Below, in pieces: positions 15,998 through 28,410 of a stretch of DNA of 28,410 bases. Under the pieces are notes generated by a model. That model ran no database searches. It was given only the letters and a program-made list of their open reading frames with translations, and had not been told where the DNA came from. The stretch is from the IMG/VR virus record IMGVR_UViG_3300011339_000072, positions 1 through 28,410 of that record, one strand, 5' to 3'. This DNA is from a virus. Taxonomy: Duplodnaviria > Caudoviricetes. How positions within the stretch are numbered: the stretch's first letter is position 1; the number at the start of each line of letters is the position of its first letter. The position numbers and the translations under genes were made by a program.

Positions 15998-16999
15998 CTA
16001 GACCGTCACGGTTCCTGTGCCAGAGGTAAACGTATAAATGGTGTTACCGCCAGAAGTTGTCAGGGTGTAATTTAAGCCAACATCAATAGATGTTAAATTA
16101 GCAAATGTTGATGAGTAAGAAATAATAACTACGCCTGAACCACCAGCACTTCCATTTAAAGCAACTTGCGAACTTGTGCCAGATGCCGCACCACCTCCTC
16201 CGCCTGTATTTACAGTTCCCGCAGTTCCACTACTATTGGGTGATGTGCCGCCCGTACCACCACCGCCAGAACCTCCAGCACCACCAGCATACGACCCTCC
16301 ATTACTTGAACCACCGCCACCGCCACCGCCACCTCTGGTTACGGATGTTCCAGTAATGCTTGATGCCGTTCCTGCTCCACCTGCTGCGCCTACTGCGCTA
16401 CCTGAAGTTGAGCCAACAGCACCAGCACCACCTCCACCGCCTCCAGATTGACTGCCCCCAGTACCGCCATTATTTCCTTGAGATGGAGATGTGGATGGGG
16501 AGTTGCCAGAGCCACCACCATTGCCATTTGTGCCGCCTCCGCCAGAACCGCCAGAACCTACTGTGTATGGTTGTGTTGCACCATTACTGCCACCGCCACC
16601 GCCAGTAGATGTAATAGAAGAAAAAACAGAATTAAACCCTTGCCCTCCAAAACTACCGCCAGTTTGATTTACTGTGCCACCAGCACCAACTGTTACAGTA
16701 AATGATGCGCCAATAGCAAAAGATGCGCCTGTCCTGTAACCACCTGCGCCACCACCGCCGCCTCCGTCATACCAATATGTTCCAGCCGTTCCTGAACCAC
16801 CACCGCCACCGCCAGCAATAACAAGGTAATTGACTGATGATGGAGGAGCAACATTACCCGCTGTGGGCCATTGTCCTAGTTTGGCATACGCGGCTTGTTG
16901 GTCAAGCGTCCAAATACCTGAAGCTGTGCTTGTTTGGTACGGGCCACTAGGCACTACGGGTGTCTTAGTAATTAAACCACCCGGATACTGCTTAGACAT
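15998..16999 (-). CDS. Glycine-rich virion adhesin/fibre-tip-like protein (333 aa)
   Basis: YLVIAGGGGGG...GGGGAGG, NTGGGGG and GGSGVVII pattern of phage glycine-rich domains. N-terminal YPGGLIT and SGIWT...WP tags. Confidence 0.75.
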   Translation of the reverse strand: MSKQYPGGLITKTPVVPSGPYQTSTASGIWTLDQQAAYAKLGQWPTAGNVAPPSSVNYLVIAGGGGGGSGTAGTYWYDGGGGGGAGGYRTGASFAIGASFTVTVGAGGTVNQTGGSFGGQGFNSVFSSITSTGGGGGSNGATQPYTVGSGGSGGGGTNGNGGGSGNSPSTSPSQGNNGGTGGSQSGGGGGGAGAVGSTSGSAVGAAGGAGTASSITGTSVTRGGGGGGGGSSNGGSYAGGAGGSGGGGTGGTSPNSSGTAGTVNTGGGGGAASGTSSQVALNGSAGGSGVVIISYSSTFANLTSIDVGLNYTLTTSGGNTIYTFTSGTGTVTV

Positions 17000-17369
17000 T
17001 TGTTACCTCAACCCATGAAGTTGTTGGCTCGTCCCAGCGATAAAATTTACCCGCCTCAATTGGCATGGGTGTTGGGGCGTTCCAAATACATTTGGCTTCA
17101 TCAAGAACCCAAGATGCAAATGGCTTGGGTGCAATAAAAGCATCGCGGCCTGCATCGTATGTGTAGCCCATACCAGCGTAATTCTTACGATAAGGTATGC
17201 CGCCGTTGCTGTGAACGCCACCATAAGTGTTGTAACTTGTGCGTTTACACATTTGACCACGGAACTCGCCGTACCACTGCTCCCAATCAATACCGTCTTC
17301 GCCCTCGTTTTTGCCAACGATGACTTCTGTAACAAGATTGTTTGAATCTAAAAATGCGTAATGCGCCAT
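16992..17369 (-). CDS. Phage protein associated with glycine-rich fibre genes (125 aa)
   Basis: MAHYAFLD...KRTSYN...RKNYAGMGYTYD...DAFIAPKPFASW...WNAPTPMP...WDE. GGAG RBS. Possibly a fibre chaperone or accessory protein (inference). Confidence 0.7.
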   Translation of the reverse strand: MAHYAFLDSNNLVTEVIVGKNEGEDGIDWEQWYGEFRGQMCKRTSYNTYGGVHSNGGIPYRKNYAGMGYTYDAGRDAFIAPKPFASWVLDEAKCIWNAPTPMPIEAGKFYRWDEPTTSWVEVTNV

Positions 17370-17377
17370 GATTTCTC

Positions 17378-18523
17378 CTATGACAAAATAAATGTACCGC
17401 TACCAGCGGTAATGGTCGTGACTTTTTTGCTGCCAACCGTTACCGTGGACATTGTTAATCCTGATTGAGAAACAGTAAAGGTTGCTGGGCAGGAAATAAC
17501 AACAACACCTGAACCGCCAGCACCACCAACTCCAACAAGACCACACCCACCACCGCCACCGCCTGTATTTGCAGTTCCAGCAAAACCACTGCCGGTATCT
17601 CCACCATTACCGCCCCCACCTGTGCCGCCCGTGCCTCCATAGGCATTCGCACTGTGACGACCGCCACCTCCACCACCGCCGTAGTAAGTGCCACTAGATG
17701 CGGGCCACTCTATACCTACACCACCATTAGCAGAACTATTTGGAGTTGCACTACCGTTCTGACCTGCCGCACCCGCGCCACCGCCACCACCGATTCGGTA
17801 TGTTGCCGCCTGAGAACCTTCAACGTTTCCATACCCAATACCGCCACCGCTAGGGTTGGCTTGTGTCACAGAACCAGTAGGGAAGCCGTTTGCACCACCG
17901 GAACCCATAGAGCCACCACTTATCAGTCCAGCCCCACCTTGAGAATTATCACTGCCTCTACCGCCACCAGAAGCAGTAGATGTTCCAGCACCATGTGCAA
18001 AACTTGAATTTGACCCAGCGGTAGAACCCGGGCCACCACCGCCAACTGTTACCGCATAACTTGCCGCAGTAAAGGTAAAGCTATTGTAAATTACTAAACC
18101 GCCAGCACCACCCGCGCCACCGCCATCGTTAGCACCACCACCACCGCCGCCAGCCTGTACTACATACCAATCTGGAATATCAGGTGTCACACTGTTAGAT
18201 GCCGCGCTTGCAGAGCCAGTCCCACTTGCGTTTGTTGCGGTTACGGTAAATGTATAAGCCGTACCAGATGACAAACCAGAAACCGTAATTGGTGAAGATG
18301 CGCCTGTACCCGTAATTCCACCGGGGCTTGATGTAACTGTATAACCTGTAATTGTTGCTGGAATACCCAAGTTGCTTGGCGCTGTAAAAGTTACAGATAC
18401 CGATGTAGGACTAGCTTGTGTAGCCGTGCCAATAGTGGGAGCACCGGGAGGCGCAGGCCAAGTGCTAGCCGCAGTAGCTTGCATTTGCTGTCTTGATGTC
18501 CAAATTCCTGAATAATTAGGCAT
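17378..18523 (-). CDS. Fibronectin type III + glycine-rich domain protein, paralog A (381 aa)
   Basis: PGAPTIGTA...ITGYTVTSSPG...ITVSGLSSGTAYTFTVTATN...S is a clear FN3 pattern, followed by a Gly-rich domain. Confidence 0.85.
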   Translation of the reverse strand: MPNYSGIWTSRQQMQATAASTWPAPPGAPTIGTATQASPTSVSVTFTAPSNLGIPATITGYTVTSSPGGITGTGASSPITVSGLSSGTAYTFTVTATNASGTGSASAASNSVTPDIPDWYVVQAGGGGGGANDGGGAGGAGGLVIYNSFTFTAASYAVTVGGGGPGSTAGSNSSFAHGAGTSTASGGGRGSDNSQGGAGLISGGSMGSGGANGFPTGSVTQANPSGGGIGYGNVEGSQAATYRIGGGGGAGAAGQNGSATPNSSANGGVGIEWPASSGTYYGGGGGGGRHSANAYGGTGGTGGGGNGGDTGSGFAGTANTGGGGGGCGLVGVGGAGGSGVVVISCPATFTVSQSGLTMSTVTVGSKKVTTITAGSGTFILS

Positions 18524-18531
18524 TATTTATC

Positions 18532-19692
18532 CTATGACAAAATAAATGTACCAGTACCAGCAGTAATAATTGTTACCTTTTTGCTACCCTCTGTTACTGT
18601 CGTCATTGTTAATCCTGATTGAGAGACAGTAAACGTGGATGGGCAAGAAATAACAACAACACCTGAACCGCCATTGCCGCCAGCATTAGCACCGTTAATG
18701 CCACACCCACCACCGCCTCCACCTGTGTTTGCAGTTCCCGCAGAGCCGCTACCAGTGTTTCCGCCATTACCTCCGCCGCCTGTACCGCCTAAACCAAAGT
18801 TAGCCGCAGAAGAATGTCGTCCTCCTCCTCCGCCTCCGCCGTAATAAATACCAGAACCCGCAGGCCATTCTATGCCTGCACCACCATTGCCAGAACCATT
18901 TGCATTGACGTTACCATTTTGACCTGCCGCGCCAGCGCCACCGCCACCACCGGGACGATACGGGCTGAAATTCAAAGTACCTTGTATATTTCCATACCCG
19001 ATACCTCCGCCGCTAGGATTAGCTTGTGTTACAGTGCCAGTAGCCGGAGGTGCTCCTGATGAACCAGCAGAACCTACGGAACCACCACTTAGAATAGCAC
19101 CACCTTCAGAATTATTACCGCCTCTACCACCACCAACAGCAGTAGATGTACCCGCGCCATGTGCAAAACTTGACAGAGTTCCAGCCGTGGAGGCGGTGGG
19201 AGACACAGGAGAAGTACCGCCACCGCCTATTGATACTGAATAACTTGTAGCAGTAAAAGTAAAATTATTGTAAATTACAAGACCACCCGCGCCAGCCGCG
19301 CCACCGCCATCGCCATTACCACCACCTCCGCCGCCAGCTTGTACTAAGTAAAAATCTGTTGTGTAGTAGCTAACAGGAGTCACGCTGTTAGATGCCGCAC
19401 TTGCTGGGCCTGTACCAAAAGAGTTTGTAGCCGTAACTGTAAATGTATACGCCGTGCCAGTTGACAAACCTGAAACTGTAATAGGAGAAGATGCACCAGT
19501 ACCTGTAATTCCACCGGGTGATGAAGTGACTGTATAACCTGTAATGGCTCCGCCGCCCTGATTAGGCGCAGTAAAGGTTACAGATACCGATGTAGAACTG
19601 GCTTGTGTAGCCGCGCCAATAGTAGGCGCATCAGGTAATTTCAACCCGTTATAGGAAGCGGTAATAAACCCGCCGGGATAGCGTTGGGACAT
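18532..19692 (-). CDS. Fibronectin type III + glycine-rich domain protein, paralog B (386 aa)
   Basis: Same architecture and long identical stretches with 17378..18523, e.g. ITGYTVTSSPGGITGTGASSPITVSGLS and the GTFILS end. Confidence 0.85.
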   Translation of the reverse strand: MSQRYPGGFITASYNGLKLPDAPTIGAATQASSTSVSVTFTAPNQGGGAITGYTVTSSPGGITGTGASSPITVSGLSTGTAYTFTVTATNSFGTGPASAASNSVTPVSYYTTDFYLVQAGGGGGGNGDGGGAAGAGGLVIYNNFTFTATSYSVSIGGGGTSPVSPTASTAGTLSSFAHGAGTSTAVGGGRGGNNSEGGAILSGGSVGSAGSSGAPPATGTVTQANPSGGGIGYGNIQGTLNFSPYRPGGGGGAGAAGQNGNVNANGSGNGGAGIEWPAGSGIYYGGGGGGGRHSSAANFGLGGTGGGGNGGNTGSGSAGTANTGGGGGGCGINGANAGGNGGSGVVVISCPSTFTVSQSGLTMTTVTEGSKKVTIITAGTGTFILS

Positions 19693-21598: not shown

Positions 21599-22099
21599 TT
21601 AAGATGTAGCGATACGCAACAACGCAGCAGCAGTGGTATTAGCAGGCATAGTCAGTGTGAACGTACCAGCGGTAATTGTTTGAGAACCAAAGGTATGAAC
21701 ACTGACAGCCGTATTGCCTTGCGTGGAGTTATAAATCAACAATGCGTCAAACGCAGTTGTCAAAGTCACGGTTGTGTACGTAATCGAAGCCGTAGGCGTT
21801 GTAAATGCAGTGCCAGCGGTTGTAGAGGTATTAGTAGCAGTTGGGGCATTCCATGCAGGAGAACCTGTAATCGTTACGCCACCAGCGGTATAACCTGTAC
21901 CCGACACTTCATTAGAAGCACTGTATGCGGTAGTACTTGCGTTCACCGTAGCAGAAGTTAAATACAAAGCCGCTTTAAACGTATCAACAGTGGGCGAAGT
22001 CAAACTGGCGCGCGAAACAAGCGTAATTGCTCCAAATTGATGCCCGCCATTGAGCAGTTGCCCCATAAACGAAGTGCACATTGCTTGTGTATTTGCCAT
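21599..22099 (-). CDS. Virion structural protein, paralog of 22294..22713 (166 aa)
   Basis: Shared TSF...G.H...D..K.ALY...TT.YSA.NE...G.Y.AGG...ALIYN.TQGN..V.V..FG...FT.TMPANT..A..IR. Confidence 0.7.
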   Translation of the reverse strand: MANTQAMCTSFMGQLLNGGHQFGAITLVSRASLTSPTVDTFKAALYLTSATVNASTTAYSASNEVSGTGYTAGGVTITGSPAWNAPTATNTSTTAGTAFTTPTASITYTTVTLTTAFDALLIYNSTQGNTAVSVHTFGSQTITAGTFTLTMPANTTAAALLRIATS

Positions 22100-22108
22100 G
22101 ATATTTCC

Positions 22109-22297
22109 TTATGTAAGAGACGCGGCTTCAGCCGAGAGTGTGACTGTTTGCTTTAACTGAACATGCGCCGAACGGTGGACAAGTTCGCCGTCCAACCAAT
22201 ACTCCACCCATGTGGTTGTTTCGTTGTCATTATCCAATGAACCTTCACGCTTTTCAAGCAATGATTCGTCCATATCACCTTTGGTTGTGGTAATCAA
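22109..22297 (-). CDS. Small acidic hypothetical protein (62 aa)
   Basis: AGGAG RBS; fills the gap between the two paralogs. Confidence 0.6.
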   Translation of the reverse strand: MITTTKGDMDESLLEKREGSLDNDNETTTWVEYWLDGELVHRSAHVQLKQTVTLSAEAASLT

Positions 22298-22713
22298 TTT
22301 GAACTCCTAATAAGAGCCGCCGTAGCGGTGTTGGCTGGCATTGTGATTGTAAACGTAGTAACAGATGTTTTGTCAGACCCAAAGTCCAACACAGCTACCG
22401 ACTTGTTACCTTGGGTGGCGTTGTAAATCAACGCGCATCTTGCGGTGATTGCGCCTGTCCAAGAGATGTTTGGGAAGCCCACATAGGCGGTGTATCCTGA
22501 AGACGACACCGTAATCGGTGTTAACTGCGCCCCGCCAGCAGAGTAAGTGCCTGTGTTAGCTATTTCGTTAGTCGCACTGTACACAGTCGTGTCTTCGTTT
22601 AAATCCGCGCTGGCTGTATACAAAGCAATCTTAATAACGTCAGTTGTCAAGTCGTGTATGCCTTGATACAACTGCGCCTTAAAACTGGTGGTTTGGGTCT
22701 GGATAATAGACAT
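22294..22713 (-). CDS. Virion structural protein, paralog of 21599..22099 (139 aa)
   Basis: Alignment by eye with 21599..22099. Directly follows the adaptor gene. Confidence 0.7.
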   Translation of the reverse strand: MSIIQTQTTSFKAQLYQGIHDLTTDVIKIALYTASADLNEDTTVYSATNEIANTGTYSAGGAQLTPITVSSSGYTAYVGFPNISWTGAITARCALIYNATQGNKSVAVLDFGSDKTSVTTFTITMPANTATAALIRSSN

Positions 22714-27310: not shown

Positions 27311-27853
27311 TTAGGAGTTAGCGAATGGTGTGGCAACAGTGCCTGTGCCTAACACCGTGCCAGTAACCATGTACTTGTTAGCAGCAATGGCAACAATCTG
27401 TACCCATGAACCGGCAACACCGCCAGTGGTAGTGCCATTTAAGTTAATAAAGTCATTGGCAGCGGCGGCTGAAAAGCCAACCAAAGCGGCTCCGTCTGAA
27501 TCAACGTCATTCATAACAATTGTGCCAACGTATTTATCAGTGCCGTCTGTACCAATCTTCAAAGAGCTTGTAGAGATGGTAGTAGGAACCCAGATTGTGT
27601 AAACAACGCCTTCGTTATTGGCTGTGCTTGGGTCTTGACCGGGGCCAGATGTTGTGGAGTTAGCTGAAACATTAATTGCGGGCAATGTCAATGTCAGTGC
27701 AGCCGCTAAAGAACCGCCAACAGCAATGATACGACCGCCGTGAGCTTCGGGGGTTAATGTGGTGCTTGTTGTGATGTCAACAACAGCCGCTGGGCCTTGT
27801 TGATAAATGCCGCCCAATGAACGAATTGGGCCTTGAAACGTAGTGCGTGCCAT
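27311..27853 (-). CDS. Putative capsid decoration/head fibre protein (180 aa)
   Basis: First gene after the capsid gene. T/G/A-rich beta protein (TLTLPA, INLNGTTTGG, ATPFA). AAGGA RBS. Confidence 0.55.
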   Translation of the reverse strand: MARTTFQGPIRSLGGIYQQGPAAVVDITTSTTLTPEAHGGRIIAVGGSLAAALTLTLPAINVSANSTTSGPGQDPSTANNEGVVYTIWVPTTISTSSLKIGTDGTDKYVGTIVMNDVDSDGAALVGFSAAAANDFINLNGTTTGGVAGSWVQIVAIAANKYMVTGTVLGTGTVATPFANS

Positions 27854-27859
27854 GATTTT

Positions 27860-27935
27860 TCCTTACATACAAGTTAAGTGCATCAGTCTGTATGTCGTCA
27901 GCCGGGACTGTCTAATGCACCGGATAAGCCCGGAA
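27860..27935 (-). ncRNA. Candidate structured cis-regulatory RNA (double pseudoknot) in the 5' UTR
   Basis: Three interleaved helices: 27933-27929/27906-27902, 27920-27912/27886-27878 and 27895-27889/27871-27865. The last abuts the RBS. Confidence 0.55.
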
Positions 27936-27942
27936 TGGGGTC

Positions 27943-27971
27943 AATATACACCAAATAAAAAGGGGGCACAA
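27943..27971 (-). promoter_or_regulatory. Putative sigma70-type promoter overlapping the capsid terminator
   Basis: TTGTGC (27971-27966), 17 nt spacer, TATATT (27948-27943). Predicted start near 27936. Confidence 0.45.
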
Positions 27972-27980
27972 GGCCCCCTT
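27953..27980 (-). terminator. Rho-independent terminator after the major capsid gene
   Basis: Minus strand AAGGGGGC-CTTGT-GCCCCCTT followed by TTTATTT, about 20 nt after the stop codon. Confidence 0.85.
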
Positions 27981-28000
27981 CAAATATTTCCGAAGAAATA

Positions 28001-28410
28001 TTAGGTCGAACCGGGTGAACCGAAGACACCCAATGGATCGCTAAAGCCAAAGCTGTAACGCTCACGGGCTTTGTAACGAACGTTACCTGTATCAAAGTCA
28101 CCGTCCATGCCAGTAGTCAAGGCCATACGCTCAAAGTGCTTCAGGCCGTTAGGAACGTCTGTGCACAAGAACCAAGCATTGGTGTCTGTCAGGTAGTGGT
28201 TAATTGTGTAACCTTCAGGGATTGAACCGTTGTTCTTCAACGCGTTGATGTCGTTGTCAGCGGTACCAACACGGAGGTTAGTCTCGAGCAAACGAGTAGC
28301 AACGAACTGAAGTGCAGGAGGCACAACCAATTTTCTAGGTTTAGCGGCGATCAACAAGCCACGCTCATCAGTCCAAGCGGCGATCTGAATCACAGCGTTT
28401 TCCAACGATG
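28001..28410 (-). CDS. Major capsid protein, C-terminal part (5' end outside the window)
   Basis: DERGLLIAAKPRKLVVPPAL...NDINA...NHYLTD..AWF...GDFDTGNVRYKARERYSFG.SDP.G resembles HK97-fold (Mu gpT-like) capsid C-termini. Followed by a strong terminator. Confidence 0.85.
   Translation of the reverse strand, partial: SLENAVIQIAAWTDERGLLIAAKPRKLVVPPALQFVATRLLETNLRVGTADNDINALKNNGSIPEGYTINHYLTDTNAWFLCTDVPNGLKHFERMALTTGMDGDFDTGNVRYKARERYSFGFSDPLGVFGSPGST

Follow-up and report, generated by a model that had tools for sequence, protein, structure and literature searches.

A predicted double-pseudoknot leader ahead of a likely capsid accessory gene in lake and ocean phages shares its core with the Mu-gpT-DE motif

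Here we report a leader of about 70 nt, lying between the major capsid gene of a tailed phage and the likely capsid accessory gene behind it, that is predicted to fold as a four-helix double pseudoknot. Sequence comparison argues that the structure is real and conserved, as all four helices are preserved through compensatory base changes in well over 100 relatives from lake and ocean phages. The same comparison reveals its strand, its tie to the downstream gene, the contact of helix C with the Shine-Dalgarno (SD) sequence, and a core common to the Mu-gpT-DE motif (RF03012). Judged in this way, the leader is a rewired, larger class built on the Mu-gpT-DE core, and is not RF03012 by score or by architecture. 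We tentatively propose that it serves as a protein-stabilised translational operator, for which the accessory protein is the favoured ligand and the capsid protein the second candidate.

The window is the whole 28,410-nt stretch of DNA that was analysed, virus record IMGVR_UViG_3300011339_000072 (Caudoviricetes), which is 46% complete. The features discussed below are as follows.

28001-28408, minus strand: major capsid protein gene, 3' part, Mu-like gpT type, cut at the window end
27953-27981, minus strand: predicted intrinsic terminator of the capsid transcript (9-bp stem and T run)
27943-27971, minus strand: predicted sigma70-type promoter, -35 at 27971-27966 and -10 at 27948-27943, spacer 17 nt, from sequence and a peak in -10 position
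27929-27933, minus strand: helix A, 5' strand, 5 bp, pairing with the apical loop A' at 27906-27902 (pseudoknot 1)
27920-27923, minus strand: alternative partner of helix A (competing 5' hairpin)
27912-27920, minus strand: helix B, 5' strand, 9 bp, pairing with B' at 27886-27878; 94% of cells paired and two-sided changes at 9/9 pairs in relatives
27897-27911, minus strand: junction core, with unpaired A 27911, the 3-bp helix D and its 6-nt loop holding A', then AC; common to Mu-gpT-DE
27908-27910 with 27899-27901, minus strand: helix D, 3 bp
27887-27896, minus strand: 3' bulge, with the helix C 5' strand at 27895-27889, then a conserved GA (G 73/74, A 74/74)
27878-27886, minus strand: helix B, 3' strand, covarying
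27865-27871, minus strand: helix C, 3' strand (C'), 7 bp (pseudoknot 2), in contact with the first SD base
27860-27865, minus strand: Shine-Dalgarno sequence, with the ATG at 27853
27311-27853, minus strand: 180-aa gene that follows the leader, its product a likely capsid accessory protein of spike or decoration type with the common N-terminal arm, from a structure model, a fold match and annotation in a relative

Fold and conservation of the leader

The minus-strand letters at 27933-27865 agree with those quoted in an earlier sequence-only reading of this DNA, which had described interlocked helices of 5, 9 and 7 bp in the order A-B-A'-C-B'-C'. We recover that order and add helix D, absent from the reading, which presents A' as an apical loop. 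The fold may be viewed as a hairpin of B and D, its apical loop reaching back to the 5' end and its 3' bulge pairing with the tail. When the 82-nt leader was shuffled 5000 times with dinucleotides preserved, helices of 5, 9 and 7 bp never arose in this order, and a 9-bp helix of any kind appeared in 96 cases. Nearest-neighbour energies are -9.9 kcal/mol for B and -10.4 kcal/mol for B with D; helix D is energetically slight alone and would thus depend on stacking within the knot. The nested minimum-free-energy fold is unremarkable (z +0.56), as expected for a pseudoknot. Helix B holds one U-G pair, the sole non-Watson-Crick pair of the fold, which reads as A-C on the plus strand. A 70-nt double pseudoknot of four helices makes a good target for structure determination.

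Relatives of this architecture, hereafter the long class, were gathered as 164 descriptor matches, of which 80 were kept at <88% identity, four false matches having been removed before alignment (A1) and two rows with faulty coordinates before a second alignment (A2). When the sequences were aligned without structural information, 87% of cells were paired (64.5% after shuffling, 29-37% in slid controls), and two-sided changes are found at 20 of 23 pairs. MAFFT mis-registers helices A and C in this alignment, so that its counts for both are too low, and both were tested by partner swapping. Against nulls that ignore kinship, helix A (24 spellings, at least 5 bp in 79/80 relatives) reached an own-partner score of 14.7 with a swapped maximum of 11.8, and helix C (32 spellings, at least 5 bp in 78/80) reached 15.3 with a swapped maximum of 12.0; two crossed helix controls stayed within their nulls in the same 80 relatives. 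Within helix B, G-U outnumbers A-C by 37 to 2 in these relatives, and further counts of G-U against A-C are 48 to 2 and 41 to 8, a strand bias consistent with an RNA read from the minus strand.

Among 74 loci chosen by capsid homology alone, helix D is paired in 100%, its middle pair being A-U, U-A, C-G or G-C in 30, 37, 4 and 3 cases, and the core bases are A in 74, A in 73, C in 73, G in 73 and A in 74. The covariance model recovers 75 of 80 loci picked on the same basis, and four of the five it missed extend <700 nt beyond the capsid stop; the strict descriptor missed 17 of the 80. Core-only patterns applied out of sample fetched 119 metagenome and 120 viral loci. Once cut and duplicate rows were removed, the full fold was present in 85/102 and 104/107 of these, respectively, and 14 of the metagenome rows were chance core matches without helix B.

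The sequence-only reading had proposed a covariation check on the post-capsid regions of related phages. Covariation is found there in all four helices across the 80 non-redundant relatives and, together with the G-U bias, it bears out the claims of a structured minus-strand RNA, of interlocked helices and of a sole wobble that is G-U on that strand only. The unremarkable nested z-score would suit chance complementarity or a DNA-level signal, but such an origin is hardly credible in view of the shuffles, the covariation in all helices and the G-U excess in all three counts, and is refuted by the comparison among relatives.

A hairpin competing with helix A had also been claimed, and this holds for part of the family. 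It is present in 50/80 relatives (swap maximum 39) and tracks changes in helix A in some groups, but is missing in others and in 30/80 overall, being lost from whole groups that include the cultured phages HTVC023P and DSL-LC04. In all-against-all segment swaps, no alternative helix able to release the SD showed strong covariation, and the next signals after B, C and A have z of 6.4 or lower with kinship ignored.

Variant leaders were observed at L311:2198-2317, L313:2220-2339, L303:2268-2387, L351:2408-2527, L355:2464-2550 and L329:2771-2858. Variant features include a G replacing the junction A, the absence of helix A (L311) and a 2-bp helix D accompanied by a longer helix A (HTVC027P and 023Pt_psg01).

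Relation to Mu-gpT-DE

Rfam searches of the window and 20 related loci, at gathering and E-value thresholds, returned only terminator-level chance matches. RF03012 gave no match in the window at E 10, and plain membership was rejected on a best score of 15.3 bits against a cutoff of 49 in 55 related records; true members score 52-73 bits (19/20 tested). The sequence-only reading could not assign the element to a known family. This holds with respect to Rfam matches, but a relative does exist in the orphan motif Mu-gpT-DE, which has the same core and the same slot.

The Mu-gpT-DE motif, reportedly from Weinberg et al. 2017 and not named in the main text of that paper, is modelled in RF03012 over 53 positions and typed Gene; sRNA. 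We fetched members by a pattern in which the outer stem and some of the bulge were preset, so that their invariance follows from the search itself, and 105 of 120 pattern loci carry a Mu-gpT-type capsid match. The window shows the context that we read from the family name and its members, with a PF10124 gene upstream, and it has the junction of two nested helices, an unpaired A and an AC-bulge-GA strand. It lacks the RF03012 architecture, in which a 4-bp outer stem holds the SD, the inner stem is extended and the start codon lies at the model end; in the window the start codon lies 33 nt 3' of the core GA.

Mu-gpT-DE, hereafter the short class, and the long class occupy a slot after a terminator and promoter behind the same capsid family. 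They have in common an outer stem, the unpaired A, a CAG/CUG helix, AC, a 7-9 nt bulge and GA; in both the bulge pairs downstream and the same arm-type genes follow. The family of the window's own accessory protein has 26 long-class and 5 short-class leaders. The wiring around this core differs. In the long class the outer stem is 9 bp long and leaves out the SD, the inner helix is 3 bp with a loop that pairs with an additional 5' strand, and the bulge finds its partner immediately before the SD. In the short class the outer stem is 4 bp and contains the SD, the inner stem is 7 bp, the 5' strand is absent, and pairing of the bulge covers the start codon. The long-class covariance model (R1) does not recover the short class. 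Extended forms of helix D at two loci (L295 and L331) appear intermediate between the classes.

The short-class bulge can base-pair with the start codon and codon 2, which extend further than the Rfam model does. Its base opposite the middle position of codon 2 forms G-C in 73 and C-G in 32 of the loci, with no mismatch (105 scored of 107 distinct loci), and the next pair between bulge and start region holds in 82/105. This swap alters residue 2 between Ala and Gly, is seen across four protein families and, on the capsid tree, takes 11 changes, at least five of them forced by well-supported branches. Co-inheritance of one leader-plus-arm cassette could partly explain both the codon-2 swap and the co-occurrence of leader and arm. 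Taken together, C' at the SD in the long class and the codon-2 pairing in the short class indicate that in both classes the RNA folds onto the site of initiation. In the passages cited from PMC7657543, CaCoFold assigns Mu-gpT-DE 12 pairs against 9 in the Rfam drawing, and some of the start-codon pairing may already be among these extra pairs.

The order in which the classes arose could not be taken from the capsid tree, a candidate approach that we rejected: over 134 columns, 53 of 97 branches are open and the classes are interleaved (5-6 changes, 2 forced). The long class is not described in the literature searched. Among the candidates of PMC10690425, three of the six listed files were searched and gave no match, and the long class could be among the 8495 unreviewed candidates of that study.

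Transcript, gene context and the encoded protein

The capsid gene of the window matches PF10124 above cutoff (E 2e-4) and phrog_371 (major head protein, E 4e-9), and its last 135 residues are 60-71% identical to the capsids of HTVC023P, HTVC027P, CRP-901, CRP-902 and DSL-LC04. The terminator that follows was called by a scan at 27981-27959, and stems resembling it are visible after the capsid stop in relatives. Immediately before it, over the capsid stop codon, lies an A+U-rich 8-bp hairpin with a UUCG loop (27983-28002, minus strand), visible in only some relatives.

A promoter of its own had been claimed for the leader, with its -35 inside the terminator. The -10 part is supported by position, as -10-like hexamers in the 80 relatives peak 7-9 nt ahead of helix A (75 counts over three positions, at most 8 elsewhere). 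The terminator-embedded -35 is not general: the window's -35-like hexamer lies within the terminator loop (27971-27966), and this arrangement recurs in 6/72 relatives. TTG is found at -35 in 42/72 and many have a separate -35; the overlap is incidental. The promoter was missed by the scan's own calling, its score being under that scan's threshold. Transcription is predicted to start near 27936 on the minus strand, and from the -10 peak the fold would begin 1-3 nt past the predicted start and occupy the leader in full.

RNA runs containing the window stretch are lake and river samples. The leader is present in four plus two lake or river metatranscriptome runs, with exact pieces in X3 and X9. 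Summed depth of the RNA contigs is lower between capsid and leader, and two unlabelled runs keep coverage there. We rejected these contigs as a source of a start site or expression level, because they mix relatives and some pass through the promoter.

As the sequence-only reading had placed it, the leader belongs with the downstream gene. In 25 of 75 loci an insert of 286-1285 nt separates the capsid stop from the leader, which keeps its place next to the downstream gene. Every full fold from the core-only fetch precedes an arm-type gene (172 by pattern, 17 variants by eye), distant relatives without such a gene (MinM2, QDWS535 and Caulobacter RW) showed no leader, and each of 23 matching phage records has a single copy. 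The interval between capsid stop and leader appears to be an insertion hot spot (L007, L013, L028, L036, L047, L068, L072, L077 and others); judging by motif, several inserts are presumably GIY-YIG or HNH homing endonucleases, and others encode small acidic proteins.

The 180-aa protein is probably a capsid accessory, judging from its modelled fold, its gene position and one annotation. Pfam and PHROG gave no match for it and the ESM Atlas only unnamed clusters. Its model (pLDDT 79) is predicted to be a virion beta-sandwich and not an RNA-binding fold; it matches best, by fold, the C-terminal knob of the capsid spike of Pa223 (Foldseek E 6e-5; VIA Z 10.2, rmsd 2.3, 99 residues), nearly tied with tail(spike) and baseplate domains (Z 9.9 and 9.2). 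The gene in the equivalent slot of DSL-LC04 is annotated as a cement protein, in line with the earlier suggestion of a decoration-like product, and one of 20 downstream proteins has a sub-cutoff Bbp16 match in Pfam. The bodies of the proteins behind the leader fall into 23 mutually unrelated similarity groups, 11 of them with at least two members, and all that they have in common is an N-terminal arm, about 15 residues long and poor in basic residues. The gene is thus modular in appearance, with one arm and at least 11 recurring, mutually dissimilar bodies. The passages of 10.1101/2025.06.11.659172 cited here describe the Pa223 spike as anchored to the capsid through its N-terminal arm.

HTVC027P, which carries a variant leader, provides a view of transcript levels (PMC12753301, Table S3, with the time order taken from the text of that paper). 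Its leader-bearing gene is late, with a mean TPM 3-5 times that of the next gene, and its accessory/capsid mRNA ratio is 0.48, 1.23, 0.67 and 0.38 at 6, 9, 12 and 15 h, the rise beginning at 0.3. This course, from 0.3 to 1.2 to 0.4, means that transcript supply does not track capsid supply. The profile, which is at mRNA level only and does not report translation, agrees with a promoter of its own and with the two products having to be matched at a later step.

Could the leader be a riboswitch, its junction acting as a pocket for a small molecule or ion so that virion decoration is tuned to host or water chemistry? Its placement would suit one, in a predicted 5' UTR (the start site being predicted) and in contact with the SD, as would a compact pseudoknot, an unpaired core conserved in two classes and a two-state option in 50/80 relatives. 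In its compact pseudoknot at the SD it resembles the preQ1-type riboswitches, where a compact pseudoknot lies partly over the SD in the account cited from PMC9410914. Unlike them, it has no Rfam match, few invariant bases and no metabolic gene context, and it occurs only in phage context in the searched genomes. We sampled 151 Pelagibacteraceae-centred genomes and 151 genomes of the Methylopumilus-centred order; two and one of these matched, respectively, all three beside a phage capsid gene, and the 302 genomes held no host-chromosome copy outside phage context. No association with genes that make, move or use a ligand was seen in cellular genomes, the only neighbours being arm-type virion genes. 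With only five near-invariant unpaired bases, a single virion-gene context and no Rfam riboswitch match in the window or the 20 related loci, the ligand sensing entertained by the sequence-only reading receives little support if the ligand is a small molecule. We consider it distinctly improbable that the A/AC/GA junction is a ligand pocket and that Mu-gpT-DE and the long class form a two-class phage riboswitch family. If they did, phages of the HTVC023P type, among the most abundant groups, would adjust the coat of their capsids according to a host metabolite or an ion, and a riboswitch would sit on a virion structural gene.

Contact with the initiation site and a possible operator

C' overlaps the best anti-SD match in 54/80 relatives, abuts it in 9/80 and lies within 5 nt in 17/80, so that the earlier observation that helix C ends at the ribosome-binding site extends, by overlap or abutment, to 63/80. 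The overlap is a single base in 36/80, and most of the long-class SD is unpaired and followed by an A-rich spacer; C' lies 10-14 nt from the ATG in 63/80.

This constant ending at the SD, with no terminator after the leader, argues against a free-standing RNA that would leave this transcript, whether as a ribozyme that cleaves itself or as a multimerising RNA of the packaging type, which we regard as very improbable. Double-pseudoknot compactness would suit such an RNA, as would self-complementary 4-mers in helix A (59/80) and the C strand (46/80), compared with 25/80 in the longer B strand. Rfam showed no conserved ribozyme core (HDV-like, twister, hammerhead or pistol) in the window or 20 related loci. 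The window does contain a hammerhead-like heptamer, but it is not conserved, D' being CUG in 36/80; the helix order differs from that of HDV. Non-palindromic helix variants occur, and the self-complementary 4-mers could allow dimers or be ancestral.

The mostly free long-class SD and its A-rich spacer may be viewed instead as the mark of a translation enhancer, in which the pseudoknot would bring the 30S subunit or S1 beside the SD for an abundant virion protein, as in tisB and timP. Activating pseudoknots are documented (passages cited from PMC11295053), but short-class leaders, which precede the same families of protein, have both SD and start codon within helices, and in the preQ1 case a pseudoknot partly overlapping the SD opposes binding of the 30S subunit (PMC9410914, in the part cited). 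We hold an enhancer to be improbable.

Another possibility, rather unlikely in our view, is a ligand-free leader whose knot shields the 5' end from nucleases and fixes a moderate rate of initiation, thereby setting the accessory/capsid ratio. The first helix lies about 1-3 nt from the predicted start in the long class, and visibly so in the short class, no covarying ON conformation was found, and the unrelated protein bodies are explained without a ligand. A plain hairpin would suffice for this role, however, and a static leader leaves unexplained why an unpaired core is kept across two differently wired classes and why the short class combines a weak 4-bp outer stem with a start-codon pseudoknot.

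The translational operator that we tentatively favour accounts for these features as follows. Two differently wired leaders that end on the initiation site point to control of initiation, and an unpaired core present in both classes, together with the marginal fold of the short class, suggests a stabilising ligand. Of the protein features, the N-terminal arm alone accompanies the leader in every case, which favours feedback by the accessory protein. We infer that the folded state represses: the folded leader would cover the ribosome-binding site, unassembled accessory protein would stabilise it through the shared arm, and the stabilised fold would stop further accessory synthesis once the capsid sites were filled. 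Antagonism of 30S binding by a pseudoknot partly over the SD is known from the preQ1 case (cited passages of PMC9410914), and the P22 scaffold autoregulates through its N-terminus according to the passages cited from 10.1101/2022.12.13.520362. Opposed to an operator are the unrelated protein bodies, an arm with few basic residues, the non-RNA-binding fold, the 30/80 relatives without the competing hairpin, the lack of a covarying ON helix in the segment swaps and a long-class SD that is mostly unpaired.

A pseudoknot at a gene's own initiation region is also found in autogenous operators. The E. coli rpsO operator has a ribosomal protein as its ligand, and binding there mimics binding to rRNA. 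Like the leader, this S15 operator has a pseudoknot at the initiation region; its competing hairpin has a counterpart in 50/80 relatives of the leader, and repression there follows when the gene product binds the knot (PMC3985624, in the passages cited). Unlike the leader, which has no Rfam match, it contains a single pseudoknot. T4 gene 32 offers a phage leader pseudoknot through which translation is autoregulated when the protein exceeds its primary ligand (PMC3014915, as cited in part). Its operator is a two-stem pseudoknot well upstream of the ribosome-binding site with an unstructured tract, whereas the present leader ends at the SD, and its ligand is a nucleic-acid-binding protein, whereas the window gene encodes a predicted virion beta-sandwich. 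That 2010 review, in the passages cited, considers T4 gene 32 possibly the only viral example of translational autoregulation by a pseudoknot, and a capsid-linked case would thus be a new setting. An orphan motif filed as an sRNA becomes, with the long class, a two-class leader family on the translation start of one capsid accessory gene, and folding onto that start gives the family a direct functional hypothesis.

Other observations concern the phage setting. Three nearby genes of the window (15998-19692, minus strand) contain Gly_rich_2 domains, two of them with fn3 as well, and two phrog_644 paralogues stand in tandem at 21599-22713. Within the otherwise proteobacterial set of capsid relatives, three GenBank phage records (L349), alike in length (65,014) and in their capsid match, carry three different cyanobacterial host assignments.
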